Shown here piece by piece: positions 9,368 through 31,034 of a stretch of 64,000 bases of DNA. Position 1 is the stretch's first letter, and each line of letters opens with the position of its first letter. The notes beneath the pieces were generated by a model that saw only the letters and a program-made list of their open reading frames with translations, ran no database searches and was not told the DNA's origin. Made by a program: the position numbers and the translations under genes. Source of the stretch: Cytophagales bacterium (lineage in GTDB: Bacteria > Bacteroidota > Bacteroidia > Cytophagales > MED-G16); NCBI GenBank assembly GCA_045568775.1, contig JBJLAJ010000003.1, positions 129,123 through 193,122 on the forward strand, read 5' to 3'.

Positions 9368-12300
9368 ATGAAATTTTTTAATTTAAATCTCCTCCTTCTA
9401 CTTGTACTTATTTCTTGTAATAAAATAGAAAATAATGAAAGTACATATAAACCAAAAAAGTCAAAAAAGTCAATTATTGTTGGCGATGCCAAATATGATG
9501 GGCCAGAAAAATATATGTATTATCATGCTGCAATTAAACATGGTGATGTTGATGTTAATAAACCATCTAGATTTAGGTCTTATAAATCTGATTATAAAAG
9601 AGTAGAGTTAGAGAAAGCATTAAAAAGACTTAATAATAATTATTCAAGATCAACTGGTAATCCAAACCCAAGTTATTCAACATATGCTAAGGACAATGCG
9701 GTCTTTATTGAAAGAGGTCCTTACAATGCTCCTGGTAGAACAAGAGCTTTCATAGTAGACGCTAGTGATCCATCAAAAGATACATGGATTGCAGGAAGTG
9801 TCGGTGGTGGAGTCTGGAAAAGTACAGACGGAGGGACTTCATGGGTTAGTATATCAAATGACATGGATAATATAGCTATATCGTGGTTAGGTCAATCCAA
9901 ATCTAATACAGATGTTTTATATGCTGCAACTGGTGAAAACTGGATTGGTTCTTTAGGAGATATAACTGGTGCTGGTGTTTATAAATCTGTAAATGGCGGA
10001 GCTAACTGGACTAATATATCAACAAAAGATAGCGGTGGTTATGTAGACTCTAAATTCTCTAACGTTAGTAGATTAATTGTTGATCCTAATGACTCTGATG
10101 TAGTTGTTATCAGTACAGTAGATGCAAATGATGCTGGTCATGGATATATTTTTAAAACTACAAACGGAGGAACTTCATGGTCTGATGTATTCAACCAACA
10201 TATTAGAATTCAACAAATTATAGCGGCGCCTTCAGATTTTAACATACAGTATGCTGTGCTAAGAGGTGTAGGAGTAATTAGGTCAAATGATGCGGGTTCT
10301 TCATGGTCTAACCCAGGTGGTATTGGCTTAGGAGGTACTGTCTCATACAATAATGCAGATGGTATTCTATCTGGAGGAGGAGGAGGTGCTTTTGGAAGAT
10401 TAGAGATTGCTGTTTCACATCAAAATCCTGATATTGTATATGCAGGAATTGATGGCAATGCTGCATCTTTCCTTAGAGTCTCTTATGATGGAGGAACTAC
10501 ATGGAATTTATTGAAGAATGATGATAATACGGATGATGATTGGTTATATCCACAGGGATGGTTTGATAATACTATAACTGTTAATCCATTTAATGATAGT
10601 ATAGTATATTATGGTGGAAGAGATGCAAGTAAAGCTACTGTATTACCTGATCAAGGAACCTCATTTTCAGGATCTACGACAAAAGTAACATTAGATAACA
10701 TATCATCTCACATGAATTTAGTTAATATATGGGGAGGTTCTGCAATTTCTCCTGATGAAACTGAATGGAATAATAATTCAGACAGTCCAGACCTTGTAGA
10801 TATAGAGGTAAGGTTTGGTCCAGGAAAACGACAAAAAGCATATAGATTTTCAGTACCTGAAGGTTCAACCTCTGGTGTGACTCACGATAAATATAACTAC
10901 GAAGGTGTGGTAGAGGTTCCATTTGAAGTGTGGAATATTTCTGCAGACCCAGAACAACAACTTACTGTTTCCTTTAGAGATAATGCAAACGATGGAGATT
11001 TTAATCTTCTCGCTGCCCAAGGTGACAGTAGAGAATATATATTTCCTCAATCGCTTCCTTATGACCCAGACATGAATCAGTCAGAAATTTTTGGAGATGG
11101 AACCCCTGGTAATGTCAACTCTATCTATGGCCAATTACATAAATCATTATTTCTTATATGGCCATTTCTTGCTGATGGAGTTTCTTGGGATCCTCAAAAT
11201 ATTCCTGAGTCAAAAATAAAAATTGAGTTTATTGATGCAACTTATAAGACACTAAAGAAATCTGTAGAGTATATGACTAATCAGTATGATAATGGTGGTG
11301 CATTTGATTTAAATGAAAATGTTCACGTCGATCATCATAACCTAGGAACAATTGTTGATTCAGAAGTTGATAGTACATTTAGAATATACCTTACGACTGA
11401 TGGAGGAATCTATTATACTATTTCAGATAAGGATCCAGGCGTCAAGGATGATCACTTTAAAAGAGCAGGTCTTATCTCGGATATTATGTTTGCTCCTGGA
11501 GGAGGATATAATACTACTCAATTTTATGGGGCTGATAAAATTGCAGGATTTGATCAGTATATTGCTGGTGCTCAAGATAACGGAACATTTTACTCTCCAA
11601 GAAATCAGGATGCAAGTGACACAACTAATTATTTTCATCCGATAGGTGGTGATGGTTTTGAAGTGATTGCTCACTTTACTGATCCTGATAAGATGTTTGG
11701 GGGTTATCAAGGAAATAATTTATTTTATACTCATAATGGAGGATCTACTTGGAATTATGTGGGTGGTCTTTTGACTGGCGGGGGACCATTTATAAATAGA
11801 GCATCTACTTCATACCAGGACCCTGATATTTTGTTTACAATCAATTCATCAGGTGTTGACAAATCATCAGATTTTGGAGTTTCTTGGGAACATACTTCAA
11901 TTAGCGGCACTTGGGGTAATAGTTTTTGGAGTGGGGCTGATGTTGAAGTATCTCTCGCAAACCCTAGATTCGTTTATGCTGGAGGTGTAATGGGTAATTC
12001 TGCTGATATTTTCATATCTAAAGATTGGGGTACTACATTTGACCCTGTTACAAAATTTGCAAATTTAGGAACAATCACAGGTATATACTCACACCCAAAA
12101 GAAGATTCAACTGCGTACATATTATTTGGTGTAGCAGGAGAAGCTAAAATAATTGAGACTAAAGATTTGGGTGATTCATGGACAGATATCACAGGATTCC
12201 ATTTAAACATTTCAGGAAAGTCATCAAATGGATTTCCAGATGTTGCCGTATATAGTTTTTTAGTTATGCCACACAATTGTGATATAATGTGGGCAGGAAC

Positions 12301-13603
12301 AGAAATCGGATTATTTGAGTCTACAGATAGAGGTGCCTCCTGGCATAAAGTAGTTGGGGATTTACCTAATGTTACAATTTGGGATATGAAAATAAAAGAT
12401 GAGGGACAAGTTGTATTTGCTACTCATGGAAGAGGTATATGGACAGCTACTTTAGAAGATTTAAAAACTTTTGTACCTAAACCTACTACACTTCGTCCTG
12501 TTATCTTAGAAGGAAATCAGACTGACAACGATGAAAAGTATGAGATAAAAGCTAAAGTTGATTTAAGATCTATATATGATTCTCTTGAAATAAATGCAAA
12601 TAGTGTATTAAGATCAACATACTATGACACGGATTCTATTGTAGAAAGAGAATATATTTTTGAAGTTGATGATAAAGGAGACTTTAGTTTACAAGCATAT
12701 GCCTATAAGGATGGAGTAATGTACCCATCTAATATATTAGAGATTGCTGTAAACCCTATTTTAGATGCAAGAACACAATTTAAAACTACTTTTAGTGATC
12801 TTGTGGGGGATGAGTTTTATTTAGATAGGTTTAGGATTGGTATTCAAGGTGGATTTGAAGGAAGGCAGTTACATACTGAGCATCCTTATGAATCTGGAGT
12901 TGATGGAGGTTATACAGACGGATATAGTGTACACGCTATGCTTAATATACCTATAATAGTTACTGATTTTACTCCTTCTATAACATTCCAAGAAATAGTT
13001 ATTGTTGAGCCGGGTGAGCCAGGCACCTCATATGGTGACGCACAATTTTGGGATTATGTGATCGTTGAAGCCTCTAAAGATGGTATTACTTGGAAAGCTT
13101 TATTGGATGGGTATGATTCAGATTCAGATCCAGGATGGAAGTCAGCATATGCTACAAATCAATTTGGAAGTCTAGATTTATTAAGGAGTAAAGAAGCTAA
13201 CTTCAAACCTCATTTTAATGAAGGAGATACAGTTAAAGTTAGGTTTAGAATGTTTTCTGATGACTTAACTGTAGGATGGGGATGGATGGTAGATGACCTT
13301 TACATACAGATGGAGACACCGGTTGTTCAAGGAATAGAGTTTACTAAATTAGATAAGAACATATCAATATATCCAAACCCGACTAAAGGTATAGTTAATA
13401 TCAATTTTTCTGATACTTGGAGAGGTGATGTGGAATGTGAAATAATTGATATTTTTGGTAGACCTGTTTATGAAAGAATATTAGATAATAATAATGCATC
13501 TTCATCTCATAATATTGATATATCAAGTTCTAATGATGGGATTTATGTAATTCAATTAATTCAAGGAGATAAGAAGACTATGTACAAAGTAATAAAAGAG
13601 TAA
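9368..13603 (+). CDS. giant BNR/sortilin(VPS10)-repeat surface protein with type-A T9SS C-terminal sorting domain
   Basis: 1411 aa. At least 10 S/T-x-D-x-G-x-T/S-W repeats (STDGGTSW, SVNGGANW, TTNGGTSW, SNDAGSSW, SYDGGTTW, THNGGSTW, SSDFGVSW, TKDLGDSW, STDRGASW). N-terminal signal with lipobox-like LISC. C-terminal ISIYPNPTKGIVNINF...GIYVIQLIQGDKKTMYKVIKE tail. Confidence 0.85.
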   Translation: MKFFNLNLLLLLVLISCNKIENNESTYKPKKSKKSIIVGDAKYDGPEKYMYYHAAIKHGDVDVNKPSRFRSYKSDYKRVELEKALKRLNNNYSRSTGNPNPSYSTYAKDNAVFIERGPYNAPGRTRAFIVDASDPSKDTWIAGSVGGGVWKSTDGGTSWVSISNDMDNIAISWLGQSKSNTDVLYAATGENWIGSLGDITGAGVYKSVNGGANWTNISTKDSGGYVDSKFSNVSRLIVDPNDSDVVVISTVDANDAGHGYIFKTTNGGTSWSDVFNQHIRIQQIIAAPSDFNIQYAVLRGVGVIRSNDAGSSWSNPGGIGLGGTVSYNNADGILSGGGGGAFGRLEIAVSHQNPDIVYAGIDGNAASFLRVSYDGGTTWNLLKNDDNTDDDWLYPQGWFDNTITVNPFNDSIVYYGGRDASKATVLPDQGTSFSGSTTKVTLDNISSHMNLVNIWGGSAISPDETEWNNNSDSPDLVDIEVRFGPGKRQKAYRFSVPEGSTSGVTHDKYNYEGVVEVPFEVWNISADPEQQLTVSFRDNANDGDFNLLAAQGDSREYIFPQSLPYDPDMNQSEIFGDGTPGNVNSIYGQLHKSLFLIWPFLADGVSWDPQNIPESKIKIEFIDATYKTLKKSVEYMTNQYDNGGAFDLNENVHVDHHNLGTIVDSEVDSTFRIYLTTDGGIYYTISDKDPGVKDDHFKRAGLISDIMFAPGGGYNTTQFYGADKIAGFDQYIAGAQDNGTFYSPRNQDASDTTNYFHPIGGDGFEVIAHFTDPDKMFGGYQGNNLFYTHNGGSTWNYVGGLLTGGGPFINRASTSYQDPDILFTINSSGVDKSSDFGVSWEHTSISGTWGNSFWSGADVEVSLANPRFVYAGGVMGNSADIFISKDWGTTFDPVTKFANLGTITGIYSHPKEDSTAYILFGVAGEAKIIETKDLGDSWTDITGFHLNISGKSSNGFPDVAVYSFLVMPHNCDIMWAGTEIGLFESTDRGASWHKVVGDLPNVTIWDMKIKDEGQVVFATHGRGIWTATLEDLKTFVPKPTTLRPVILEGNQTDNDEKYEIKAKVDLRSIYDSLEINANSVLRSTYYDTDSIVEREYIFEVDDKGDFSLQAYAYKDGVMYPSNILEIAVNPILDARTQFKTTFSDLVGDEFYLDRFRIGIQGGFEGRQLHTEHPYESGVDGGYTDGYSVHAMLNIPIIVTDFTPSITFQEIVIVEPGEPGTSYGDAQFWDYVIVEASKDGITWKALLDGYDSDSDPGWKSAYATNQFGSLDLLRSKEANFKPHFNEGDTVKVRFRMFSDDLTVGWGWMVDDLYIQMETPVVQGIEFTKLDKNISIYPNPTKGIVNINFSDTWRGDVECEIIDIFGRPVYERILDNNNASSSHNIDISSSNDGIYVIQLIQGDKKTMYKVIKE

Positions 13604-15104: not shown

Positions 15105-16160
15105 ATGAAAATTAATGTTAAGAGAGTTAGAGAATCAAAACTTACTAAAGTTAATTTTTCAGATCTTGGTTTCTGTAAATATCATTCTGATCATATGTTT
15201 ATTGCTGATTATGAAGATGGCAAGTGGTCAAATTTTAGAATTACCCCTCATGAAGATTTAAATTTATCTCCAGCCTGCACAACACTCCATTATGGTCAGA
15301 CAATTTTTGAAGGTTTAAAAGCATACAAGAATAAGAAAGATGAGATTCTTATTTTTCGTCCAGATAAGAATGCTACTAGATTTAATAAAAGTGCTCAAAG
15401 AATGTGCATGCCAACATTTCCAGAAAAGTATTTTATTCAATCAATAACTGAATTATTAAAAATTGATAAAAGATGGGTTCCGTCTCAAGAAAATAGCTCA
15501 TTATATATCCGTCCACTGATGTTTGCTATGGACTCCTATATTGGAATAAAACCAGGAGATAAATATGTTTTTATTATTATCTGTGGCCTTGCAGGTGGGT
15601 ATTATTCTGAACCTGTAAATGTTAAAATAGAGACTAAATTTACTAGAGCTGTTTCAGGTGGTGTAGGTTTTTCAAAGACAGCAGCAAATTATGCTGCAGC
15701 CCTTTATCCTGCTGTCGAAGCCCAAAAAGATGGGTTTCATCAGTTAATATGGACAGATGGTAAAGAACATAAGTATGTTGAAGAGTCAGGAACAATGAAT
15801 TTATTTTTTGTTATAGATAATAAATTAATAACACCACCTCTCGGTGACACTGTTTTAGATGGAGTCACTAGAGATAGTATTATTATTCTGAGTAAAGATC
15901 TTGGTATTGACATTGAAATAAGAAAAATCTCTGTTGATGAAATAATTAATTCTTTAGATAATAATTCAATTAAGGAGGTTTTTGGTGCAGGAACTGCTGC
16001 AACTATTGCCCCAATAAAGACTATTGGATATAAAAATAAAAAATATCATATACCTCAATTATCTAGAGACTCTATTTCATCTACTTTACTCAAATCACTT
16101 AATTCAATAAAGTATGGAGAAACTGAAGATAAATTTGGTTGGATACTTAAATTAAATTAA
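15105..16160 (+). CDS. ilvE: branched-chain amino acid aminotransferase
   Basis: 351 aa, class IV aminotransferase pattern. Catalytic Lys context GFSKTAANYAAAL. The stop TAA overlaps the prfB ATG (TAATG). Confidence 0.9.
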   Translation: MKINVKRVRESKLTKVNFSDLGFCKYHSDHMFIADYEDGKWSNFRITPHEDLNLSPACTTLHYGQTIFEGLKAYKNKKDEILIFRPDKNATRFNKSAQRMCMPTFPEKYFIQSITELLKIDKRWVPSQENSSLYIRPLMFAMDSYIGIKPGDKYVFIIICGLAGGYYSEPVNVKIETKFTRAVSGGVGFSKTAANYAAALYPAVEAQKDGFHQLIWTDGKEHKYVEESGTMNLFFVIDNKLITPPLGDTVLDGVTRDSIIILSKDLGIDIEIRKISVDEIINSLDNNSIKEVFGAGTAATIAPIKTIGYKNKKYHIPQLSRDSISSTLLKSLNSIKYGETEDKFGWILKLN

Positions 16161-17243
16161 TGAATATAGACCAGATTAATAATTTAACAAAGCGTGCCTC
16201 GGCTCTAAGGGGCTATCTTTGACTATGAAAAAAGAAAAAAACTAATTTCTTCAAAAGAAGAGGTTTCTCTTGAACCTGACTTCTGGAATAATAGAGAAAA
16301 AGCAGAAAAAGTCTTAAAAGAAATATCTTCTAATAAAGTTTGGATCGTAGCATATGATAATATTACCAGCTCAATATCCGATCTAGAGACTTTATTTGAA
16401 TTTTATGAATCAGGTGAAGTTGATGAAGAAGAAATAGAAATAGAATATACCAAAACATTAGATTTAATTGAAAAGCTTGAGTTCAAGAAGATGCTTTCAA
16501 GTAAAGAAGATCAAATGAGCGCAATAATTGAAATTAATCCAGGTGCCGGAGGAACTGAGAGTCAAGACTGGGCAAGTATATTGATGAGAATGTATATTAT
16601 GTGGGCAGAATCTCAAAATTTTATTGTTAAAAAGGTAAATGTTCAACCTGGAGATACTGCTGGAATAAAATCTGCAATTTTGGGAATTGAAGGTCAATTT
16701 GCTTACGGTAATTTAAAATCAGAGATTGGAGTGCACAGATTAGTAAGAATTTCCCCCTTTGATTCTGGAGCGAGGAGACATACTTCTTTTGCTTCTGTAT
16801 TTGCATACCCTGAAGTTGATGAAACTATAGAAATAAATATTAACCCAGCTGATATAGAGTGGGAAACATTTAGGGCTAGTGGGGCAGGAGGTCAAAGTGT
16901 AAACAAAATTGAATCCGCGGTTAGACTTAAACATGAGCCTTCTGGTCTAATTATAGAGTGTCAGCAGGAGAGGAGTCAAATATTAAATAAAGAAAAAGCT
17001 TTAAATATGTTGAAATCTAAGTTATATCAAATAGAGGTTGATAAAGTAAATAAAGAAAAGGATGAAAGGGATAGTACTAAATTAAAGATTGATTTTGGTT
17101 CCCAAATTAGAAATTATGTTCTCCATCCTTATAAAATGATTAAAGATGTAAGAACAGGGGTTGAGAGAGGGGATGTGAATAATGTTTTGGATGGAGATAT
17201 TAATGATTTTATTAAAGCTTTTCTATTGGAAAAAGACAATTAA
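16160..17243 (+). CDS. prfB: peptide chain release factor 2, requires programmed +1 frameshift: join(16160..16219,16221..17243)
   Basis: Frame 0 reads [20 protein letters not shown] then TGA at 16220-16222. The +1 frame continues [14 protein letters not shown]... into the 16491-17243 ORF, which carries the SPF (RISPFDS) and GGQ ([10 protein letters not shown]) motifs. Confidence 0.93.
16208..16223 (+). promoter_or_regulatory. prfB +1 frameshift site: SD-like AGGGGC, TAT, slippery CTT TGA C
   Basis: AGGGGCTATCTTTGAC differs from the canonical E. coli site AGGGGGTATCTTTGAC at one base. Confidence 0.9.
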
Positions 17244-17273: not shown

Positions 17274-18512
17274 ATGATTTCGGGTAAAAAATCTAGTAAA
17301 TTTACTGCTAATACTCAATTAAAAATTTCACCATTTTTTGAAAGAACATCCAAAATTAATATGTCTCAAGAGTGGAAAAGATGGGGTGGTTTTTTGGCAT
17401 CAACAAAATATGATTTACATCATGATAATGAATATTTTGCCATTAGGACTAAAGCAGGGTTATTAGATATATCACCATTGTATAAGTATAGAATTAAGGG
17501 AAAAGATTCAAAGTTATTTCTAAATAGATTAGTTACAAGAAATATTAATATATGTGAAGTAGGTCAGGTAATGTATTCTTCATGGTGTGATGAAAATGGA
17601 AAGGTTATAGATGATGGTACAATTCAAAGGCTAGATAAAGAAGATTTTAGGTTAACAAGTGCAGAACCTAATTTATATTGGTTGGAATTAAATTCTTATG
17701 GTATGGATGTTGACATTCATGATGAGTCAGAAATGATCTCTGCTTTAGCACTTCAAGGACCAAACTCTAGAGATATTATCAATTCTATTTCATCTAAATC
17801 TATAAATGATTTAAAGTTTTTTAGAATAATTAACACTGATTTTAATGGTATTGAAGTATCTATTTCAAGAACAGGATACACAGGGGATTTGGGCTATGAG
17901 ATCTGGATAAAACCTAGTGACTCTTTGAAAATTTGGGATATTTTAATTAAAAAAGGTAAAGATTTTGGTATAACTCCTGCTGGGCTTAATGCTTTAGATA
18001 TTTCTAGAATAGAAGCATCTCTTATTCTTTTAGATGTAGATTATATTTCTTCAAGACATGCACTTATTGAAGATAGAAAATCTTCTCCATATGAATTAGG
18101 TTTGGGCTGGACCGTAAAATTAAATTCAGGAAATTTTATTGGCTATAAAGCACTTAAAAATGAAAATAAAAATCCATCGCACTGGAGTTTTGTTGGGATT
18201 GAAATTTTATGGGATGACCTAGAAAAACTTTATAAAAAAGTAGGATTAGCTCCAGATCTTCCCCATGCTGCATGGAGAGATAGTGTACCTCTTTATTATA
18301 ATAAAAGTCAAGTTGGATATGCAACAAGTGGATGTTGGTCACCTATTCTTAAGAAATATATTGCACTTGCTCACGTTAATTCAAAGTATTCTTCTTTAGA
18401 TACTATCTTAGATTTTGAGATTAAGGTTGAACATTACAGACACCTAACACCTGCTAAAATTGTTAAAACCCCTTTTTACAATCCTAAAAGAAAAATGTCA
18501 TGTCCAGATTAG
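17274..18512 (+). CDS. aminomethyltransferase (GcvT/DmdA/DMGDH C-domain)-family folate-binding protein, stand-alone
   Basis: 412 aa. ISRTGYTGDLGYEIW, EYFAIRTKAGLLDISPLYKYRIKGKDS and ALALQGPNS motifs. Only 30 nt after prfB. Confidence 0.8.
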   Translation: MISGKKSSKFTANTQLKISPFFERTSKINMSQEWKRWGGFLASTKYDLHHDNEYFAIRTKAGLLDISPLYKYRIKGKDSKLFLNRLVTRNINICEVGQVMYSSWCDENGKVIDDGTIQRLDKEDFRLTSAEPNLYWLELNSYGMDVDIHDESEMISALALQGPNSRDIINSISSKSINDLKFFRIINTDFNGIEVSISRTGYTGDLGYEIWIKPSDSLKIWDILIKKGKDFGITPAGLNALDISRIEASLILLDVDYISSRHALIEDRKSSPYELGLGWTVKLNSGNFIGYKALKNENKNPSHWSFVGIEILWDDLEKLYKKVGLAPDLPHAAWRDSVPLYYNKSQVGYATSGCWSPILKKYIALAHVNSKYSSLDTILDFEIKVEHYRHLTPAKIVKTPFYNPKRKMSCPD

Positions 18513-20080
18513 ATAAGTATGATGCAATTATAATAGGAGGTGGTCATAATGGTTTAACTGCTGCTGCCTATTTGTCAAAAGCTGGAAAAAAGGTATTAGT
18601 TTTAGAGAGAAGACATGTACTGGGAGGAGCAGCAGTTACAGAAGAAGTTTTTCCTGGATTTAAATTTTCAGTTTGTTCATATGTTGTGAGTTTGTTAAAG
18701 GCTAATGTTATAAGAGAACTAATGTTACCACGTTTTGGTCTTGAAATATTACCACTAGAGAGTACATTTACTCCTCTAGATAATGACTATTTATTTAGAA
18801 CATCTGACTATGATCAAACTTACAAGGAAATATATAGACACTCTAAAAAAGATGCTGAAAATTATACTAGGTTTGGTCCATTGATGGGTCAGGTAGGTAT
18901 GGCAGTAAGGCCAATTCTAGAGACAATTGCCCCAAATGCAATAAGACCGAGCATTAATGATCTGCTTTCTTTGAAAAGTTTATTAGGTCATGTAAAAGGT
19001 TTAAATAATGAGACTTTTGAATATTTATGTAAACTCATGACAATGAGCTCTGCAGATTTTCTTGATGAATGGTTTGAATTTGAACCTCTCAAAGCTACAA
19101 TGTCAGCAAGTGGGATTATTGGAACTTTTATGGGTCCAAGGTCTCCAGGATCTGCTTATGTTATGCTTCATCATTATATGGGTGATATCGATGGATCTTT
19201 TAGGGCTTGGGGTTTCCAAAGAGGAGGAACTGGTGAATTAAGTATGACAATAGCTCGTTCTGCTAAGCATTTTGGTGCTGAAATTTTAACGGAAGCTTCA
19301 GTTGATAAAGTAATTGTTAAGAATGGTGAAGCTGTAGGTGTTGCATTAGAGAATGGTAATGAATATAAATCAGATATAGTAATTTCAGGTTTAGATCCAA
19401 AACTAACATTTCTTAAAATGATAGATGAAAGTGATCTTCCTGAAGATTTTGTTAGAGATATTAAAAACTTTAGAATTAGAGGTTCTTCAGGTAAGGTAAA
19501 TTTAGCACTTGATGGATTGCCTAATTTTACATCTTTACCTGGAGATGGTCCCCATTTAAGAGGAGCTATTTCAATAAGCCCTAGTTATGATCATCTTGAA
19601 AGAGCATATGATGATGCTAAATATGGTAATTTTTCTAAAGAGCCTTATATGGATATTATTTTACCTTCAGTTCTAGATCCTACTATGGCACCACCAGGGA
19701 AACACGTTATGTCATGTTTTGTACAGTATGCACCATATAATATAAATGGTGGCTGGGATGATAACAAAAGAGAAGCCTTTGGCGATGCAGTTGTTAATAC
19801 TCTTTCACGATTTGCCCCCAACATAAAAGACTTAATTTTACATCGCCAAGTTCTCACTCCAATGGACTTAGAAAAAACTTTTGGATTAACAGAAGGAAAT
19901 ATTTTTCATGGTGAATTAACATTACAACAACTGTTTTCATTTAGACCTGCGGTCAAATGGGCTGATTATACTACGCCTATAAAAAATTATTATCAATGTG
20001 GTTCTGGAACTCATCCAGGAGGTGGAGTCACTGGATCTCCGGGAGAAATGGCTGCTAAAAAAATTCTTAAAATATGGTAG
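18500..20080 (+). CDS. NAD(P)/FAD-dependent oxidoreductase, phytoene-desaturase/amine-oxidase superfamily (paralogue 1)
   Basis: 526 aa. YDAIIIGGGHNGLTAAAYLSKAGKKVLVLERRHVLGG dinucleotide fold. C-terminal CGSGTHPGGGVTG. Overlaps the upstream gene by 13 nt. Confidence 0.8.
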   Translation: MSRLDKYDAIIIGGGHNGLTAAAYLSKAGKKVLVLERRHVLGGAAVTEEVFPGFKFSVCSYVVSLLKANVIRELMLPRFGLEILPLESTFTPLDNDYLFRTSDYDQTYKEIYRHSKKDAENYTRFGPLMGQVGMAVRPILETIAPNAIRPSINDLLSLKSLLGHVKGLNNETFEYLCKLMTMSSADFLDEWFEFEPLKATMSASGIIGTFMGPRSPGSAYVMLHHYMGDIDGSFRAWGFQRGGTGELSMTIARSAKHFGAEILTEASVDKVIVKNGEAVGVALENGNEYKSDIVISGLDPKLTFLKMIDESDLPEDFVRDIKNFRIRGSSGKVNLALDGLPNFTSLPGDGPHLRGAISISPSYDHLERAYDDAKYGNFSKEPYMDIILPSVLDPTMAPPGKHVMSCFVQYAPYNINGGWDDNKREAFGDAVVNTLSRFAPNIKDLILHRQVLTPMDLEKTFGLTEGNIFHGELTLQQLFSFRPAVKWADYTTPIKNYYQCGSGTHPGGGVTGSPGEMAAKKILKIW

Positions 20081-21648
20081 ATAAGAAATTTGATTATATA
20101 GTTATTGGTGGAGGTATAAATTCTTTAATATCCGCAGCACTTCTATCTAAGAAAAATAAATCAGTATTATTATTTGAGTCATGCGACCAAATAGGTGGCA
20201 TGGCATCCCTAAATGAATTTTCTCCAGGGTTTAAATGTAATTTAATTTATGATTATATAAAATGGATAGACGATAGAGTAATTAAAAATTTAAAAATAAA
20301 TAAATCCTTACTTGAGTACATAGAAAATGATATATATAGGATCTCTTTAAACTCAAATACAAATGATCATATTTTTTTTAATAGAGATAATAATAAAACT
20401 GTAAAATCAATTCAATCAATTTCAAAGTCTGATTCTGAAAAGTGGATTGATTTCACAAATTATATTTCTAAAATAGCTAGTTTTCTAAAACCTCTTTATA
20501 AAATAACACCTCCTAATATTCAAAAAATGGGATTAGGTGATGCTATGTCTATGAAGGAAATGATTAAGCCAATGTGGAGTCATGGAACAAGGGGTTTTGT
20601 TGATATTTTAAGAACATTGCCAATGATGATGCCTGAGTTACTAGATGAATGGTTTGAATCAAAACTATTAAGGGGTACTATTTCTGCTAGTGGTATTCAT
20701 CATTTGAATCAGGGACCATATTCAGCTGCTACTGTTCTAAATTTTTTACATCACAACTTATATTCGGGGTCACATATTTTAGATGCTAATTTTATTAAGG
20801 GTGGGGTAAATAATTTTTCAAAAGTTCTGAAAAATAAAGCTATAGATAATGGGGCAGTAATTAAAATAAACTCTAAGGTTATATCTATAGATTGTAGTGA
20901 TGATATATGTCATGGTGTAACTTTAGAAAATGGCGAAAAGTTTTTTTGTAACAATATTATTTCAGGATTGGATCAAAACAATACTTGTATTAAATTATTA
21001 GGGCTTGAAAATCTTAATCCTAATATTAGAACACAATTAAATAATATAAAGTATAGGGGAAGTACTGCTCGAATTCATTTTGCTTTGAAAACCATACCAA
21101 AGATTAAAGGAGTTAATAATGATCAGCTAAAAACTGTATTTTCTATCACTCCATCAATCAATTATTTAGAGAAGGCATTTGATGAAGTTAAATACGGCAG
21201 ATTTTCATCATCCCCTAGTATAGAGTTTTGTATTCCTAGCCTAATTAATTCTGGATATGCTCCTAATGGTAAGCATGTTCTTTCAGCATCAATACAATAT
21301 ATTCCATATAAATTAAAAAATAAGGATTGGAATAAAAGTTTAAAAGATGATATTATTAAAAATGTTACTAATATATTAGATCAATATATTTCTAACTTTT
21401 CAGATATTATTATTGATTCTTCCATATCCACTCCATTAGATTTTGAAAATTCATTAGGGATAACTGAGGGTAGTTTTAATCATGGTGATATGACTCTTGA
21501 TCAATTTTTATTTATGAGACCAACAATTTCTTCATCACAATATAGAACTCATATTAAAAACTTATTTATCTGTGGTCCTTCAACTCATCCAGGAGGAGGC
21601 CTTCATGGATCTAATGCTTTTAATATGGTTAATGAAATACTTAAATAG
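20074..21648 (+). CDS. NAD(P)/FAD-dependent oxidoreductase, phytoene-desaturase/amine-oxidase superfamily (paralogue 2)
   Basis: 524 aa. FDYIVIGGGINSLISAALLSKKNKSVLLFESCDQIGG. C-terminal CGPSTHPGGGLHG. Collinear with paralogue 1 (LDEWFE, ISASGI, ENGE, IISGLD blocks). Overlaps it by 7 nt. Confidence 0.8.
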   Translation: MVDKKFDYIVIGGGINSLISAALLSKKNKSVLLFESCDQIGGMASLNEFSPGFKCNLIYDYIKWIDDRVIKNLKINKSLLEYIENDIYRISLNSNTNDHIFFNRDNNKTVKSIQSISKSDSEKWIDFTNYISKIASFLKPLYKITPPNIQKMGLGDAMSMKEMIKPMWSHGTRGFVDILRTLPMMMPELLDEWFESKLLRGTISASGIHHLNQGPYSAATVLNFLHHNLYSGSHILDANFIKGGVNNFSKVLKNKAIDNGAVIKINSKVISIDCSDDICHGVTLENGEKFFCNNIISGLDQNNTCIKLLGLENLNPNIRTQLNNIKYRGSTARIHFALKTIPKIKGVNNDQLKTVFSITPSINYLEKAFDEVKYGRFSSSPSIEFCIPSLINSGYAPNGKHVLSASIQYIPYKLKNKDWNKSLKDDIIKNVTNILDQYISNFSDIIIDSSISTPLDFENSLGITEGSFNHGDMTLDQFLFMRPTISSSQYRTHIKNLFICGPSTHPGGGLHGSNAFNMVNEILK

Positions 21649-22882
21649 TATTTGTTGTTTTTTTAATGCTCTTTTCCAAATGTTTTAAATACCATATTTT
21701 TAGTTTTTCTAACCCCATTTCCATTTCTGATAAAGGTCCAGGTTCATATTTTTTTGATAGAACCCCTTTCTGATTATCTTCTATTATTCTTTTGTCTTCT
21801 AAAGTAGTCTTATGCCACATCCAGGTCAATTCTTCAATATTATAATCAACTCCTTCAATTGCATTTTCATTTACTAACCACATTATTTCTATATCAGTAT
21901 CATTTGGTCCTTTTGGTATAAATGTAAAAGTTGTAGCAAAATCATTTGACATAATTATGCTGTTAAATGGGGAAGGTCCTATAGTTGTATATCCACCATC
22001 AAATTCATTAAATTCTCCCATAAGAGTTGATGCTGGCTTTCCAGACTTTGTTTCAGATAATTTCCCATTACTAAATGGAGTCCTTTCTGCACTTCTAAAG
22101 AATTCAGAGAATTTATCTTCTGAAAATTCACCAGTTAAATACCCTAATTTCTTAACCTTTTTATTCCAAATTTTTAATTTTTTATTAAATTCTTTTGATT
22201 TTGGTCCAGTATTACTCCCTGCACCATATGATTGAATATAATCTCTACTATGAACATGACAGTACTCAGGATGGGATGGTTGGCAGTGGTAACATTCATG
22301 AAAATTATCTAATGCTAATTTCCAATTTCCTTTTGTTGGATATATTTTTCTATCTGCGATTTTAGCTCTACCTAAACCATGTAATTCGATAAATGGTTTA
22401 ATTGGTTTAATGAAATTTTTAAATTCTGAGGGTTTTTCAGACAAATTAATAAATACTAATCCTTCGAAAACCTGAGAATAACATTTTTTTAAATTCCAAT
22501 CTTTAGGATTAAAGTTTTTCTCCATCATTTTAGCATTTATTAGATTTCCTCCAAGATCATAACCCCATGCATGATAAGGGCAAATAAGTTTTCTTACCCT
22601 ACCTTCATCTTCTAAACATATATGCGAACCCCTATGCCTACATACATTAAAAAAACAATTAATCTTTTCATTGTTTTCTCTTATAATAATTATTGATTCG
22701 TTTCCTATTGAAAATAAAAAATAATCTCCTTTATTTGGAATTCGAGATGCATGTCCAACAAATACCCATTGATTATAAAAAAAAGTTTCTAAATCTAATT
22801 CAAATATTTCTTTGTTAACATAGAAGGGTTGTTCAAGAGGAAATTTTTTTTTTTGAGAATTAATTAATTTTAAAATATCCAA
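21641..22882 (-). CDS. Rieske [2Fe-2S] non-haem-iron oxygenase alpha subunit, choline-monooxygenase/GbcA/CntA-like
   Basis: 413 aa. Rieske CRHRGSHIC...CPYHAWGY. Mononuclear-iron motif NWKLALDNFHECYHCQPSHPE. The 3' end overlaps the convergent flavoprotein gene by 8 nt. Confidence 0.8.
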   Translation of the reverse strand: MDILKLINSQKKKFPLEQPFYVNKEIFELDLETFFYNQWVFVGHASRIPNKGDYFLFSIGNESIIIIRENNEKINCFFNVCRHRGSHICLEDEGRVRKLICPYHAWGYDLGGNLINAKMMEKNFNPKDWNLKKCYSQVFEGLVFINLSEKPSEFKNFIKPIKPFIELHGLGRAKIADRKIYPTKGNWKLALDNFHECYHCQPSHPEYCHVHSRDYIQSYGAGSNTGPKSKEFNKKLKIWNKKVKKLGYLTGEFSEDKFSEFFRSAERTPFSNGKLSETKSGKPASTLMGEFNEFDGGYTTIGPSPFNSIIMSNDFATTFTFIPKGPNDTDIEIMWLVNENAIEGVDYNIEELTWMWHKTTLEDKRIIEDNQKGVLSKKYEPGPLSEMEMGLEKLKIWYLKHLEKSIKKTTNTI

Positions 22883-22978: not shown

Positions 22979-24406
22979 ATGAAAAAAAGAATACCTACTT
23001 TAATTGAGTCTTTTCTACCGATAATATTTCTTGTAATATTTTTATCTATTAATGTCACAGTTTTTGGAGATGATGCTCTATCTGGAAGTATTCAGATTGT
23101 TCTTATCTTTTCGTCAGCTATAGCTACTGTAATTGCATTTAATTTAGGTTTTACATGGATTGAAATCCAAAAGGGGATTCAAAATAGTATTAATTCTGCT
23201 ATACCTTCAATTCTTATACTTTTTCTTGTTGGCTCACTTGCTGGGTCTTGGTTATTGAGTGGAATTGTACCTGCTCTAATCTATTATGGTATTCAAATTT
23301 TAAATGCTAAAATATTTTTATTTGCTGCTTGTATTATATGTATTATAGTTTCAATGGCAACTGGAAGTTCTTGGACAACATCTGCTACAATTGGTATAGC
23401 TTTAATAGGAATTGGTAAAGCTCTTAATATTCCTGAAGGGTTAATTGCAGGTGCCATTCTTAGTGGTGCTTATTTTGGAGACAAAATGTCTCCTTTATCA
23501 GACACGACGAATCTTGCTCCGGCAATGGCTGGTAGTGATTTATTTACTCATATTAAATATTTATCAATAACCACTTTTCCATCTATAATTATTTCACTTG
23601 TTATTTTTATTATAATGGGCATGAATATTTCGAGTGATGTGAATATTGATAATGCTTCACTAATTTCATCTTCCATTCTAGATAAATTTTATATATCCCC
23701 AATTTTATTTTTAGTCCCTTTCACTGTTATCTTTCTCATTTATAAAAAAATAAAAGCAGTCCCTTCATTATTTGTTGGTGTAGTCTTAGGATCTGTTTTT
23801 GCTTTAATATTTCAGCCTGATTTAGTTAGAGAGGTATCAGGAAATCTTTCAGAAGACTGGACTTCATTATTTATTGGAATAATGAAATCATTATATGGGT
23901 CAATTTCAATATCAACATCTAATGAGTTAGTATCTGATCTTCTTTCATCAAGTGGGATGTATGGTATGTTAGGGACTATTTGGTTAGTTGTTTCAGCTAT
24001 GATTTTTGGTGGTGTTATGGACAAAGCAGGTTTTCTAAATGTAATTTCATCTTTAATTTTAAAGAAAGTTAATTCAGCGGGATCCTTAGTAACCTCAACC
24101 GCAGGAACTTGTATATTTTTTAACTTAACTGCATCAGATCAATATATATCAATAGTTGTTCCTGGTAAAATGTACTCAAAAATATATAAGGATAAAGGAC
24201 TTGCTCCTGAGAATTTGAGTAGAACTTTAGAAGATAGTGGAACTGTCACATCGGTCTTAATTCCATGGAATACTTGTGGTGCATACCATGCTAGTGTTTT
24301 AAATGTATCTACTTTAACTTACTTACCTTACTGTTTTTTTAGTATTATTAGTCCTATTATCACAATCTTAATAGCCTATTTAAAGATAAGAATAAAACGT
24401 TTATAG
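22979..24406 (+). CDS. NhaC-family membrane transporter (Na+/H+ antiporter family, substrate unknown)
   Basis: 475 aa, about 11-12 hydrophobic helices. The YFGDKMSPLSDTTNLA and SVLIPWNTCGAYH blocks are typical of NhaC-family proteins. Confidence 0.75.
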   Translation: MKKRIPTLIESFLPIIFLVIFLSINVTVFGDDALSGSIQIVLIFSSAIATVIAFNLGFTWIEIQKGIQNSINSAIPSILILFLVGSLAGSWLLSGIVPALIYYGIQILNAKIFLFAACIICIIVSMATGSSWTTSATIGIALIGIGKALNIPEGLIAGAILSGAYFGDKMSPLSDTTNLAPAMAGSDLFTHIKYLSITTFPSIIISLVIFIIMGMNISSDVNIDNASLISSSILDKFYISPILFLVPFTVIFLIYKKIKAVPSLFVGVVLGSVFALIFQPDLVREVSGNLSEDWTSLFIGIMKSLYGSISISTSNELVSDLLSSSGMYGMLGTIWLVVSAMIFGGVMDKAGFLNVISSLILKKVNSAGSLVTSTAGTCIFFNLTASDQYISIVVPGKMYSKIYKDKGLAPENLSRTLEDSGTVTSVLIPWNTCGAYHASVLNVSTLTYLPYCFFSIISPIITILIAYLKIRIKRL

Positions 24407-29708: not shown

Positions 29709-31034
29709 ATGTCAAAAAAAATAGTAATTCTTGGCGCCGGAAAATCTTCATCTTTTTTGATAAAATATTTATACAATAATAGAAATGAATTAGATATTTC
29801 TTTGAATATAGCATCAGATTATAGACCTAAATACATCCATGATTTTGAAGAAATAAGTTTTATAAATTTAGATATAAAGAATAAAGAAAAGCTACTTCAA
29901 GTCATGCAAAACTCCTTCATAGTAGTTAGCCTATTACCTCCATTTTTACACTTTGAAATTGCAGAAATATGCTCATATAATAAAATTAATATGATAACGG
30001 CATCTTACCTTGATGATAAAATAAAAACTTTAGAAAAAACATTTATTGACAATAATTGTTTTCTATTTATGGAAATGGGTCTTGATCCAGGTATTGACCA
30101 CATGTCTGCCATGAAGATGATTGATAAATTAAGTGCATCAAATAAAATTATTGAATTTGAATCATATACTGGTGGTTTAGTAAAGCTAGATAAAGAAAAT
30201 AACCCTTGGGGTTATAAATTTACTTGGAATCCTATGAATGTTATTCTTGCAGGAGCAGACGGAGCAAATTATTTAAAGGATGGCGTCAATAAATCAATTC
30301 CATATAAAAAGATATTTAAAGACTTTACATCTATAGTTATACCTGGAGAAGAAGGTTTTGAAGGTTATCCTAATAGAAATTCATTAATGTATAAAGACTT
30401 ATATAAGTTAAAAGATATTAAAACTCTTAAGAGAGGAACACTGAGACATAAAGGATTTTGTGAAACGTGGTCTTTGCTGATTGAATTAGGATTGACTAGC
30501 AATACTAAAACTCTATATAACAATAAAAAAATGACTTTTTTTGACTTTTTTAATCATAAAATAAAAGCAAAAAGCATTGAAGATTTAATTAAATACCTTG
30601 ATAAAAAACATGGAATAAAAAGAACTTCTTTAGTATATAAAAATCTTGAGTGGTCAGGTTTTTTTTCTAATAAAAAAATACCTATTGTCGAAGGTAAAAT
30701 ATCAGATTTTCTTTTGGCAGTATTGATGGACAAATGGACTCTATCTGATGGAGACATCGACTTAATTGTTATGACCCATTCCATAGTATATGAGTCTGAA
30801 GAAAAACAAAATAAAATTTTATCTTATTTAAAAATTGAAGGTGAAGACAATGTATATACGGCTATGTCAAAAACTGTAGGATTACCAATTGCTGTGCTGA
30901 TAGAACACATAATAAAAAATAAAATTCAAAAAAAAGGCATCCATTTACCATTCAGTAAGGATATTTATGAGCCTATACTTAAAAAACTTAAAAAATTAGG
31001 AATTGAGTTCACTGAGATAGAAACTAATATTTGA
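29709..31034 (+). CDS. saccharopine dehydrogenase family protein
   Basis: 441 aa. [10 protein letters not shown] Rossmann start and [16 protein letters not shown] block. Confidence 0.8.

Follow-up and report, generated by a model that had tools for sequence, protein, structure and literature searches.

The stretch of DNA analysed here, referred to below as the window, is 64,000 nucleotides (nt) of contig JBJLAJ010000003.1 from a Cytophagales bacterium, with a G+C content of approximately 29%. It carries three adjoining genes, here called the triad, which encode a stand-alone GcvT-like protein (gene 1) and two flavoproteins (genes 2 and 3, encoding flavoproteins A and B respectively). Direct reading of the sequence gives three open reading frames (ORFs), each on the + strand with an ATG start, which overlap by 13 and 7 nt as reported in the preliminary description of this DNA. 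The features of the triad are as follows.

17274..18512, + strand: GcvT-fold protein of the tetrahydrofolate (THF)-binding aminomethyltransferase family, 412 amino acids (Pfam, NCBIfam, alignment to PDB structures)
18500..18512, + strand: 13 nt shared by the end of gene 1 and the beginning of gene 2, ATGTCCAGATTAG (read directly)
18500..20080, + strand: flavoprotein A, flavin adenine dinucleotide (FAD) enzyme with a CrtI/amine-oxidase fold, assigned to the PYROXD2 group, 526 amino acids (Pfam, HMMER search, neighbour-joining tree, AlphaFold2 model)
20074..20080, + strand: 7 nt shared by the end of gene 2 and the beginning of gene 3, ATGGTAG (read directly)
20074..21648, + strand: flavoprotein B, assigned as a divergent paralogue of A, 524 amino acids (identity to A, synteny)

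The product of gene 1 falls within the GcvT fold family, with matches to Pfam GCV_T (198.5 bits, E = 1.5e-58, cut-off 25.6) and GCV_T_C (49.7 bits, E = 3.6e-13, cut-off 25.9) that both exceed the Pfam gathering thresholds. The two motifs previously quoted as aminomethyltransferase hallmarks are both found in the translation. The protein retains the ‘DD’ Asp and the folate-site motif SRTGYTG[DE]xGYE, and its VIDDGT and ISRTGYTGDLGYEIW line up with the equivalent motifs in the trimethylamine N-oxide (TMAO) demethylase Tdm (9q59) and in the T protein of B. subtilis (1yx2). Residues D114, R199–G207, and E209 are invariant across 24 GcvT-like homologues that are linked to similar clusters.

Among the NCBIfam models the best match is to Tdm, over profile positions 385–759 (266 bits), and the best PDB match is again Tdm (9q59, residues 427–783), followed by 1yx2; gene 1 aligns with both structures from end to end. 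It scores below the cut-off of every GcvT equivalog model (TIGR00528, 188.6 vs. 235.85; NF001567, 221.9 vs. 300; NF010093, 127.6 vs. 459), and no gcvH or gcvP annotation was seen in the window neighbours examined or in the neighbour families, described below, that recur at related loci. On the strength of the curated cut-offs and the missing gcvH and gcvP in that neighbourhood, a true glycine-cleavage T protein is ruled out. By these comparisons the gene 1 product is closest to the C-terminal THF domain of Tdm and is not a bona fide GcvT.

Some GcvT-fold enzymes remove methyl groups themselves, and gene 1 has sub-threshold matches to DmdA (132 bits, cut-off 410), LigM, and DesA. The GcvT-like protein might then be a demethylase of the DmdA/LigM type, working without net redox change to give 5-methyl-THF, with the flavoproteins oxidizing the demethylated product. 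We regard this as quite unlikely: the scores against Tdm (266 bits) and the T protein (222 bits) far exceed those against DmdA or LigM, and Tdm and T proteins take formaldehyde or aminomethyl units. The ranking of models is the same, with Tdm first, in all 24 of the cluster-linked homologues, which come from other phyla, and MetF was not noticed among the recurrent neighbours.

Genes 2 and 3 were originally described as collinear paralogues, and their products are indeed 33% identical across 523 residues (E = 5e-98), with a THPGGG motif near the C-terminus of both. The GxGxxG motif that was also ascribed to both is canonical in A (GGGHNG) but not in B, where it reads GGGINS (GxGxxS). Both proteins match Pfam Amino_oxidase (PF01593) and NAD_binding_8, so that the profile search suggested for the three proteins returned GCV_T for gene 1 and these two families for genes 2 and 3. 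The Amino_oxidase match covers residues 18–511 of A (59.4 bits) and 18–512 of B (35.3 bits, cut-off 19.8), which places both in the flavin amine oxidase/CrtI superfamily; for A this fold is confirmed by an AlphaFold2 model (pLDDT 81.9, pTM 0.84). The DAO model matches only residues 8–44 of A, a 37-residue Rossmann start. The triad does not belong to the class of DAO–GcvT fusions, since its proteins are separate ORFs and A lacks a full DAO match.

The best curated family match of the flavoproteins is the ketolase CrtO (NF045689), at 340.8 bits for A and 206.2 bits for B against a cut-off of 1000, and the scores for crtI_fam (TIGR02734) are 105.8 and 85.3 bits against 238.1. A Foldseek search with the model of A found CrtD (4rep) as the closest solved structure (TM-score 0.73/0.78), then CrtI (4dgk), and after these the flavin amine oxidases 6-hydroxynicotine oxidase, NicA2, putrescine oxidase, MAO-N, and Pnao; there was no PYROXD2-like structure among the matches. 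In their source databases, relatives of A carry labels such as ‘phytoene dehydrogenase-like’ or ‘beta-carotene ketolase’. Taken at face value, these matches and labels would make A and B carotenoid or isoprenoid enzymes (a CrtO-like ketolase, or a CrtI/CrtD-like desaturase or isomerase) lying next to a GcvT-like gene by accident, an outcome that the preliminary description had named as fatal to its own proposal. We reject it as very improbable on the grounds of curated cut-offs, gene context, and the relationship to PYROXD2. Both proteins are far below the cut-offs (for A, 341 vs. 1000 bits for CrtO and 106 vs. 238 for crtI_fam), and A is only 17–18% identical to the CrtD and CrtI structures compared with about 44% to PYROXD2. 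In the window genes examined, in the families that recur around the 80 related loci, and in four annotated plasmid loci, no crt genes (crtB, crtE, crtY) were noted, and chance cannot account for a GcvT linkage seen at 96% of loci in different phyla.

The relationship to PYROXD2 emerged from an exhaustive HMMER search with A as the query, which gave 2,686 clusters at 50% identity with E < 1e-30. Among the best matches are proteins of 575–602 amino acids with N-terminal extensions. Exact look-up showed that one of the sequences (P0135) clusters with PYROXD2 of the oyster Crassostrea/Magallana gigas and that another (P0156) is PYROXD2 of the mayfly Cloeon dipterum; a third eukaryotic match comes from the choanoflagellate Didymoeca. 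A is 39–44% identical to these three over its full length (44% to P0135, over query residues 5–523), and B is 25–29% identical to eukaryotic PYROXD2. A neighbour-joining tree was made from 115 sequences, including 57 A orthologues and 6 eukaryotic PYROXD2 and without CrtI-type outgroups. In this tree the smallest clade that holds the 57 A orthologues also takes in all 6 eukaryotic PYROXD2 and 2 B sequences; the other B sequences all branch outside this A/PYROXD2 clade, as a paraphyletic set. From full-length collinearity and the shared clade, rather than a formal reciprocal-best-hit analysis, we assign A to the PYROXD2 group. By the same comparisons B is classed as a divergent paralogue outside that group.

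B evolves faster than A, with a mean pairwise identity of 45% compared with 66%. PYROXD2 shares 64 of the 79 columns that do not vary among A orthologues, and only 4 of the 79 have no majority in the B group. The B-type paralogues keep the FAD motifs, and B of the window keeps the acidic residue that ends the second strand. Given the retained FAD motifs and most of the invariant positions, the B group probably consists of active flavoenzymes and not of degenerate subunits. Relatives of A are abundant in ocean metagenomes, where at least 8,000 were scored, with single clusters at 90% identity having up to approximately 2,100 members; some derive from Tara Oceans assemblies.

We then consider whether the three genes stay together in other genomes, as the preliminary description expected. 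Genomes were scanned with one genome per species, and the best 80 loci, encoding proteins 48–82% identical to A, were kept; none of these is titled SAR11 or SAR116. They come from more than ten phyla, among them Gemmatimonadota, Acidobacteriota, Chloroflexota, Actinomycetota, Planctomycetota, Zixibacteria, Bacteroidota, and Alpha- and Gammaproteobacteria, and include a locus from a Neomarinimicrobiota metagenome-assembled genome (MAG). The composition of each locus was determined by tblastn with the window proteins, and loci flanked on each side by 7 kb or more (n = 51) were treated as well flanked. In 49 of these 51 (96%) a GcvT-like gene lies no more than 8 kb away, and 46 have the second paralogue directly downstream of A, so that the expected synteny is found across many phyla. 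Wherever a second paralogue was detected among the 80 loci (66/66) it is on the same strand and directly downstream of A, with a median gap of about 12 nt and a gap of 60 nt or less in 54 of the 66. As for the GcvT-like gene, 36 loci have it upstream in divergent orientation, 31 have it upstream in the same orientation, and 4 have it downstream. A further arrangement, with A and GcvT and no B, is seen in 13 loci, mostly from Chloroflexia and Acidimicrobiia. These counts of linkage and adjacency make the A–B pair the tightest unit and GcvT its almost obligatory companion.

ORFs that read through from A into B are found in six sequences: P0309 (1037 amino acids), P0312 (821 amino acids; L089, 6001–8466), P0310, P0313, P0314, and P0315. 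In P0309 the C-terminal HPGGGVMG of A is joined directly to the IIIIGAGHNG of B; in P0312, B is truncated, a divergent GcvT-like gene adjoins the fused ORF, and the contig is possibly from long reads. We set these fusions aside as evidence for a heterodimer, because P0309 and P0312 are each single sequences and possible assembly artefacts. An apparent fusion of 963 amino acids in locus L069 is an artefact of ORF calling in a high-GC genome; A has a normal stop there.

Two genes follow the triad in the window and may belong with it.

21641..22882, − strand: Rieske non-haem-iron oxygenase alpha subunit of the Stc2/GbcA/CntA group, 413 amino acids, convergent with gene 3 (Pfam, NCBIfam, PDB)
22979..24406, + strand: NhaC-family transporter (TIGR00931)

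The Rieske protein matches Pfam Rieske and Ring_hydroxyl_A. Its best NCBIfam match is GbcA (325 bits vs. a cut-off of 670), and its best PDB matches are the stachydrine demethylase Stc2 (3vca/4qup, 264 bits over the full length) and then the carnitine monooxygenase CntA. A Rieske protein of this group lies beside the triad in 16 of the 51 well-flanked loci (31%) and in the four plasmid loci examined, and the window protein is a probable pathway partner of the triad. The stop-proximal ends of gene 3 (+) and the Rieske gene (−) overlap by 8 nt (21641–21648), and a consensus scan found no terminator-like hairpin between the two genes; transcription may therefore run from either gene into its neighbour. 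The NhaC-family protein scores 384 bits against TIGR00931 (cut-off 370) and 364 bits against the ArcD arginine/ornithine antiporter model, which is below the cut-off of that model. In a Bacteroidota (Roseivirgaceae) MAG (L064, 8256–9431) an NhaC gene 58% identical to that of the window follows GcvT, A, B, and Rieske genes, which suggests that this transporter accompanies the cluster in members of the FCB group. The window NhaC can be put forward, weakly, as a candidate substrate or ion transporter of the cluster. Elsewhere the transporters are of other kinds, with PotF-type ATP-binding cassette (ABC) systems in Proteobacteria and APC permeases in Acidobacteriota.

Further out, the flanks of the cluster are housekeeping genes: lolD, ilvE, and prfB upstream, and rsgA, kdtA, and a gene for a YihA/YsxC-type GTPase downstream. 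Further pathway genes (PurU, DDAH-like, class-III aminotransferase, APC permease) were sought in the window without success, and the only aldehyde dehydrogenase (ALDH) found in that search is unrelated and 30 kb from the cluster. Three other features of the window may be mentioned. The prfB gene (release factor 2; 16160–17243, +) has a classical programmed +1 frameshift at 16217–16223, where the short ORF0 ends in CTT TGA C and the +1 frame continues into a 250-residue ORF at 16491–17243. A protein of 1411 amino acids (9368–13603, +) has a Sortilin/Vps10-type repeat region and a C-terminal Por_Secre_tail, the sorting domain of type IX secretion, which fits a host from the FCB group or Marinimicrobia. 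Finally, a 441-residue protein of the saccharopine dehydrogenase family (Sacchrp_dh_NADP and Sacchrp_dh_C; 29709–31034, +), which is not contiguous with the cluster, is possibly an enzyme of lysine or polyamine (carboxynorspermidine-type) metabolism.

For the wider set of loci, neighbouring ORFs were clustered and a representative of each family was annotated. The recurrent neighbours are Stc2/GbcA-like Rieske proteins (26 loci), APC-type amino-acid permeases (21), the formyl-THF deformylase PurU (9), ALDHs (8), and class-III aminotransferases (8). Others are omega- and GntE-like aminotransferases, PuuC-like ALDHs, PotF-like ABC or APC permeases, a BetI-type TetR repressor, and flavoproteins resembling trimethylamine dehydrogenase (TMADH). 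The neighbourhood points to catabolism of N-methyl and one-carbon (C1) units.

This is well illustrated by plasmids from four cultured alphaproteobacteria (Parasedimentitalea marina, Shinella zoogloeoides, Fuscovulum ytuae, and Rhizobium sp. SL42), in which a TetR gene and an optional aminotransferase gene are followed by A, B, and GcvT; a PotF-like ABC transporter and an omega-aminotransferase are encoded close by. The Fuscovulum plasmid has two co-directional Rieske genes after GcvT, and in the other three the Rieske gene is elsewhere in the 25-kb locus. The A, B, and GcvT genes of these plasmids carry generic annotation only. In Parasedimentitalea, Shinella, and a sponge-associated Poriferihabitaceae MAG, A–B–GcvT is adjoined by an OYE-FeS flavoprotein of about 680 amino acids (TMADH/DgcA type; NADH:flavin oxidoreductase plus Pyr_redox), which has the architecture of trimethylamine and dimethylglycine dehydrogenases. 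The three genes are as follows.

L084, 18340..20379, − strand: OYE-FeS flavoprotein
L085, 16645..18681, − strand: OYE-FeS flavoprotein
L082, 5939..8002, + strand: OYE-FeS flavoprotein

The locus of Kiloniella laminariae contains genes for a BetI-type TetR regulator, a GntE-like transaminase, a PuuC-like ALDH, an ADP-forming acyl-CoA synthetase, an acyl-CoA dehydrogenase, and a Fer2/NAD reductase. A different arrangement occurs in three Marinimicrobia loci (L001–L003, from Tara Oceans and other ENA contigs), where the operon consists of a DDAH/ADI-superfamily hydrolase, GcvT, A, B, and a co-directional Rieske gene of 371 codons. Upstream of it are genes for an amino-acid permease, an ArgE/DapE-type deacylase, and, on the minus strand, a pyridoxal phosphate-dependent decarboxylase, and the extended operon spans approximately 3631–14261 in L001. 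This genomic context differs from that of the window, and the window Rieske protein (413 amino acids) is only 29% identical to the 371-residue one. We do not take the DDAH-like neighbour as proof of a dimethylamine substrate, as it is a member of the guanidino-modifying superfamily that scores far below the DDAH cut-offs; it is retained as a lead only. Like the plasmids, the Kiloniella and Marinimicrobia loci gave no sign of a crt gene.

One further sequence links the flavoprotein to formaldehyde. In L088 (1437–3887; Logan SRR23031613) an uninterrupted ORF of 816 amino acids (P0179) has an N-terminal domain of the glutathione-dependent formaldehyde-activating enzyme (GFA; PF04828, 59.7 bits) followed by a PYROXD2 homologue that is 41% identical to A. 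Its neighbours are eukaryote-like (RTC, VMP1, CDP-OH phosphotransferase). The domain arrangement hints at another means by which this flavoprotein could be tied to the processing of formaldehyde.

We propose that the triad is a THF-linked oxidative N-demethylase, made up of separate polypeptides and using a new family of flavoproteins, and we give this a probability of roughly 60%. Those refuting conditions of the preliminary description that lend themselves to computation all turned out favourably for the idea. A and B would each oxidize an N-CH3 group of a secondary or tertiary amine to an iminium ion. The GcvT-like protein would take the C1 unit onto THF as 5,10-methylene-THF, with no release of free formaldehyde, and the product would enter the FolD/PurU oxidation route or biosynthesis. 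The tight pairing of A and B suggests that they form a heterodimer, or that they have two successive specificities, converting -N(CH3)2 to -NHCH3 and then to -NH2. Where a Stc2/GbcA-like Rieske protein is present, it might take the first methyl group off a substrate that is quaternary or whose N-methyl group otherwise resists the flavin. The demethylated primary amine could then be assimilated directly or transaminated. The sequence comparisons show the folds and domains, the relationship to PYROXD2, the conserved A–B adjacency and GcvT linkage, and the N-methyl/C1 setting. What we infer here comprises the chemistry, the physical complex, the folate dependence, the order of the demethylations, the electron acceptor, and the substrate. 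For the version in the window, our leading guess at the substrate is methylated basic amino acids (N6-methyl-lysines, methyl-arginines), or dimethylamine or methylamine released from them, on the basis of the arginine- and lysine-type neighbours in the L001–L003 lineage and of the human metabolite pattern described below. The proteobacterial versions look more like catabolism of N-methylated diamines or omega-amino acids.

The Rieske protein allows a second interpretation of the cluster, in which it removes the methyl groups, the GcvT-like protein traps the resulting formaldehyde in the manner of DmmD, and the flavoproteins cleave a non-methyl C–N bond further along the pathway, as polyamine or diamine oxidases do. 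The DmmD precedent is real, a Rieske protein of the Stc2/GbcA/CntA group adjoins the triad in the window and at many other loci, proteobacterial clusters contain PotF-like polyamine transporters and aminotransferases, and the folds nearest to A after the carotenoid desaturases include putrescine oxidase and NicA2. The distribution of the genes argues for the other assignment: GcvT tracks the flavoproteins (49/51 loci) and not the Rieske gene (present in 16/51), and there are loci that have only A and GcvT. In addition, the human PYROXD2 associations point to N-methyl compounds in particular, and a GFA–PYROXD2 fusion exists. We therefore consider this interpretation unlikely.

Several observations weigh against flavin-dependent N-demethylation by the triad. 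The nearest solved folds (CrtD and CrtI) and the best curated match (the CrtO ketolase) belong to enzymes that act on C–C or C–H bonds of lipids. The GcvT-like gene is divergent in the 36 loci noted above, so that tight translational coupling to the flavoproteins is not a general feature, and the 13 loci without B imply that B is not essential to the chemistry. A reductase partner for the Rieske protein was not noted among the window genes examined, and the DDAH-like neighbour scores 90 bits against curated DDAH cut-offs of 340–450. The GFA fusion is one sequence, from a domain family that is functionally broad, and the fused A–B ORFs P0309 and P0312 may be assembly indels. Eukaryotic PYROXD2 has no known dedicated GcvT partner. 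Lastly, the support for every member of the proposed system is comparative and computational.

The relationship of A to PYROXD2 gives the proposal a bearing on human metabolism. Biallelic PYROXD2 variants reportedly cause a severe infantile mitochondrial disorder. PYROXD2 itself carries some of the strongest known metabolite quantitative trait loci. The protein is mitochondrial, and little is known of its ‘precise biological function’ (PMC8777681). A missense variant accounts for about 50% of the variance in plasma N6-methyl-lysine and about 48% of that in N6,N6-dimethyl-lysine, and is also tied to their N2-acetylated forms and to N-methylpipecolate (PMC8109053). The locus is associated with a urinary signal assigned to trimethylamine (P < 1e-307), and also with plasma dimethylamine and asymmetric dimethylarginine (PMC4564198), and PYROXD2 expression correlates negatively with urinary trimethylamine (PMC3169529). 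These metabolites are all N-methyl amines, which would build up if N-demethylase activity were reduced. An oxidative demethylase of free epsilon-N-methyl-lysine, ‘epsilon-alkyllysinase’, was described from rat kidney in 1963–64 and is ‘thought to be identical’ to LSD1 (PMC3936616).

We tentatively suggest, as a possibility to which we would give somewhat less than even odds, that the PYROXD2 family is an unrecognized class of flavin N-demethylases acting on free N-methylated amines, and that the human enzyme demethylates N6-methyl-lysine, N6,N6-dimethyl-lysine, and related N-methyl amines and would correspond to epsilon-alkyllysinase. In the literature searched we found neither a reaction for PYROXD2 nor a description of the bacterial operon. 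Searches of curated family libraries and the PDB likewise gave no characterized example, in line with the earlier remark that this type of enzyme was not recognizable as a characterized one.

If the proposal is correct, it has consequences in three areas. For human genetics, a bacterial orthologue of PYROXD2 that is linked to folate C1 capture, to PurU, and to known N-demethylases provides a testable hypothesis for the reaction of PYROXD2. For enzymology, the flavoproteins would be a third flavoprotein lineage feeding N-methyl groups into the folate pool, and the GcvT module would be a portable, separately encoded formaldehyde trap. In the ocean, methylated amines and methylated amino acids are significant sources of nitrogen and C1 units, and the known dimethylamine step (dmmDABC) is, to our knowledge, missing from many abundant marine clades; the operon could offer an alternative route for demethylation of dimethylamine or methyl-amino acids, one of importance to abundant lineages such as Marinimicrobia if dmmDABC is absent from them.

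It is useful to compare the triad with systems already described. The closest in logic are dimethylglycine oxidase and dehydrogenase, sarcosine dehydrogenase, and 4-methylaminobutyrate oxidase, in which a flavin oxidizes the N-methyl group and a GcvT module produces 5,10-methylene-THF. The window GcvT-like protein aligns with the C-terminal domains of such DAO–GcvT fusions (1pj5, 5l46). The triad differs from them in that its flavoprotein is from the CrtI/PYROXD2 branch, is encoded apart from the GcvT module, and exists as two paralogues. Heterotetrameric sarcosine oxidase (SoxABDG) and N-methylglutamate dehydrogenase are multi-subunit N-demethylases with a THF-binding GcvT-like region in SoxA, and the window GcvT-like protein matches SoxA residues 608–861. 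However, the catalytic SoxB is a DAO-family flavoprotein, and the set of alpha, beta, gamma, and delta subunits is absent at the window locus.

Other systems do without a DAO domain. The preliminary description held that the flavin partner of GcvT domains is a DAO-family domain, which is too narrow, as Tdm, DmdA, and DmmDABC show. Tdm is not known to be a flavoenzyme, and Dmm belongs to the haem-containing monooxygenases. The Tdm C-terminal THF domain (9q59) is the closest relative of the window GcvT-like protein, and in Tdm it is fused to the catalytic N-terminal domain. A precedent for a stand-alone GcvT protein that serves a separate demethylase is DmmD, which is encoded together with an enzyme lacking a DAO domain and is believed to capture formaldehyde on THF (PMC5520151). 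DmmABC is unrelated to CrtI-type flavoproteins, and neither Tdm nor DmmDABC has a PYROXD2-like protein.

On the flavoprotein side, CrtI, CrtD, and CrtO have in common with A the three-domain FAD fold (TM-score 0.73–0.78 to CrtD 4rep) and the C-terminal HPGGG-type motif. They differ in that A fails their curated cut-offs, has low identity to the solved CrtD and CrtI, and has no carotenoid gene context. Eukaryotic PYROXD2 resembles A in its full-length identity, in its clade, and in the shared invariant positions (64/79), and differs in being a single gene with a mitochondrial presequence, without an adjacent GcvT and without a B paralogue. What is new in the triad is a flavoprotein of the CrtI/PYROXD2 rather than the DAO lineage, the duplication into A and B, and a bridge to an orphan human enzyme.

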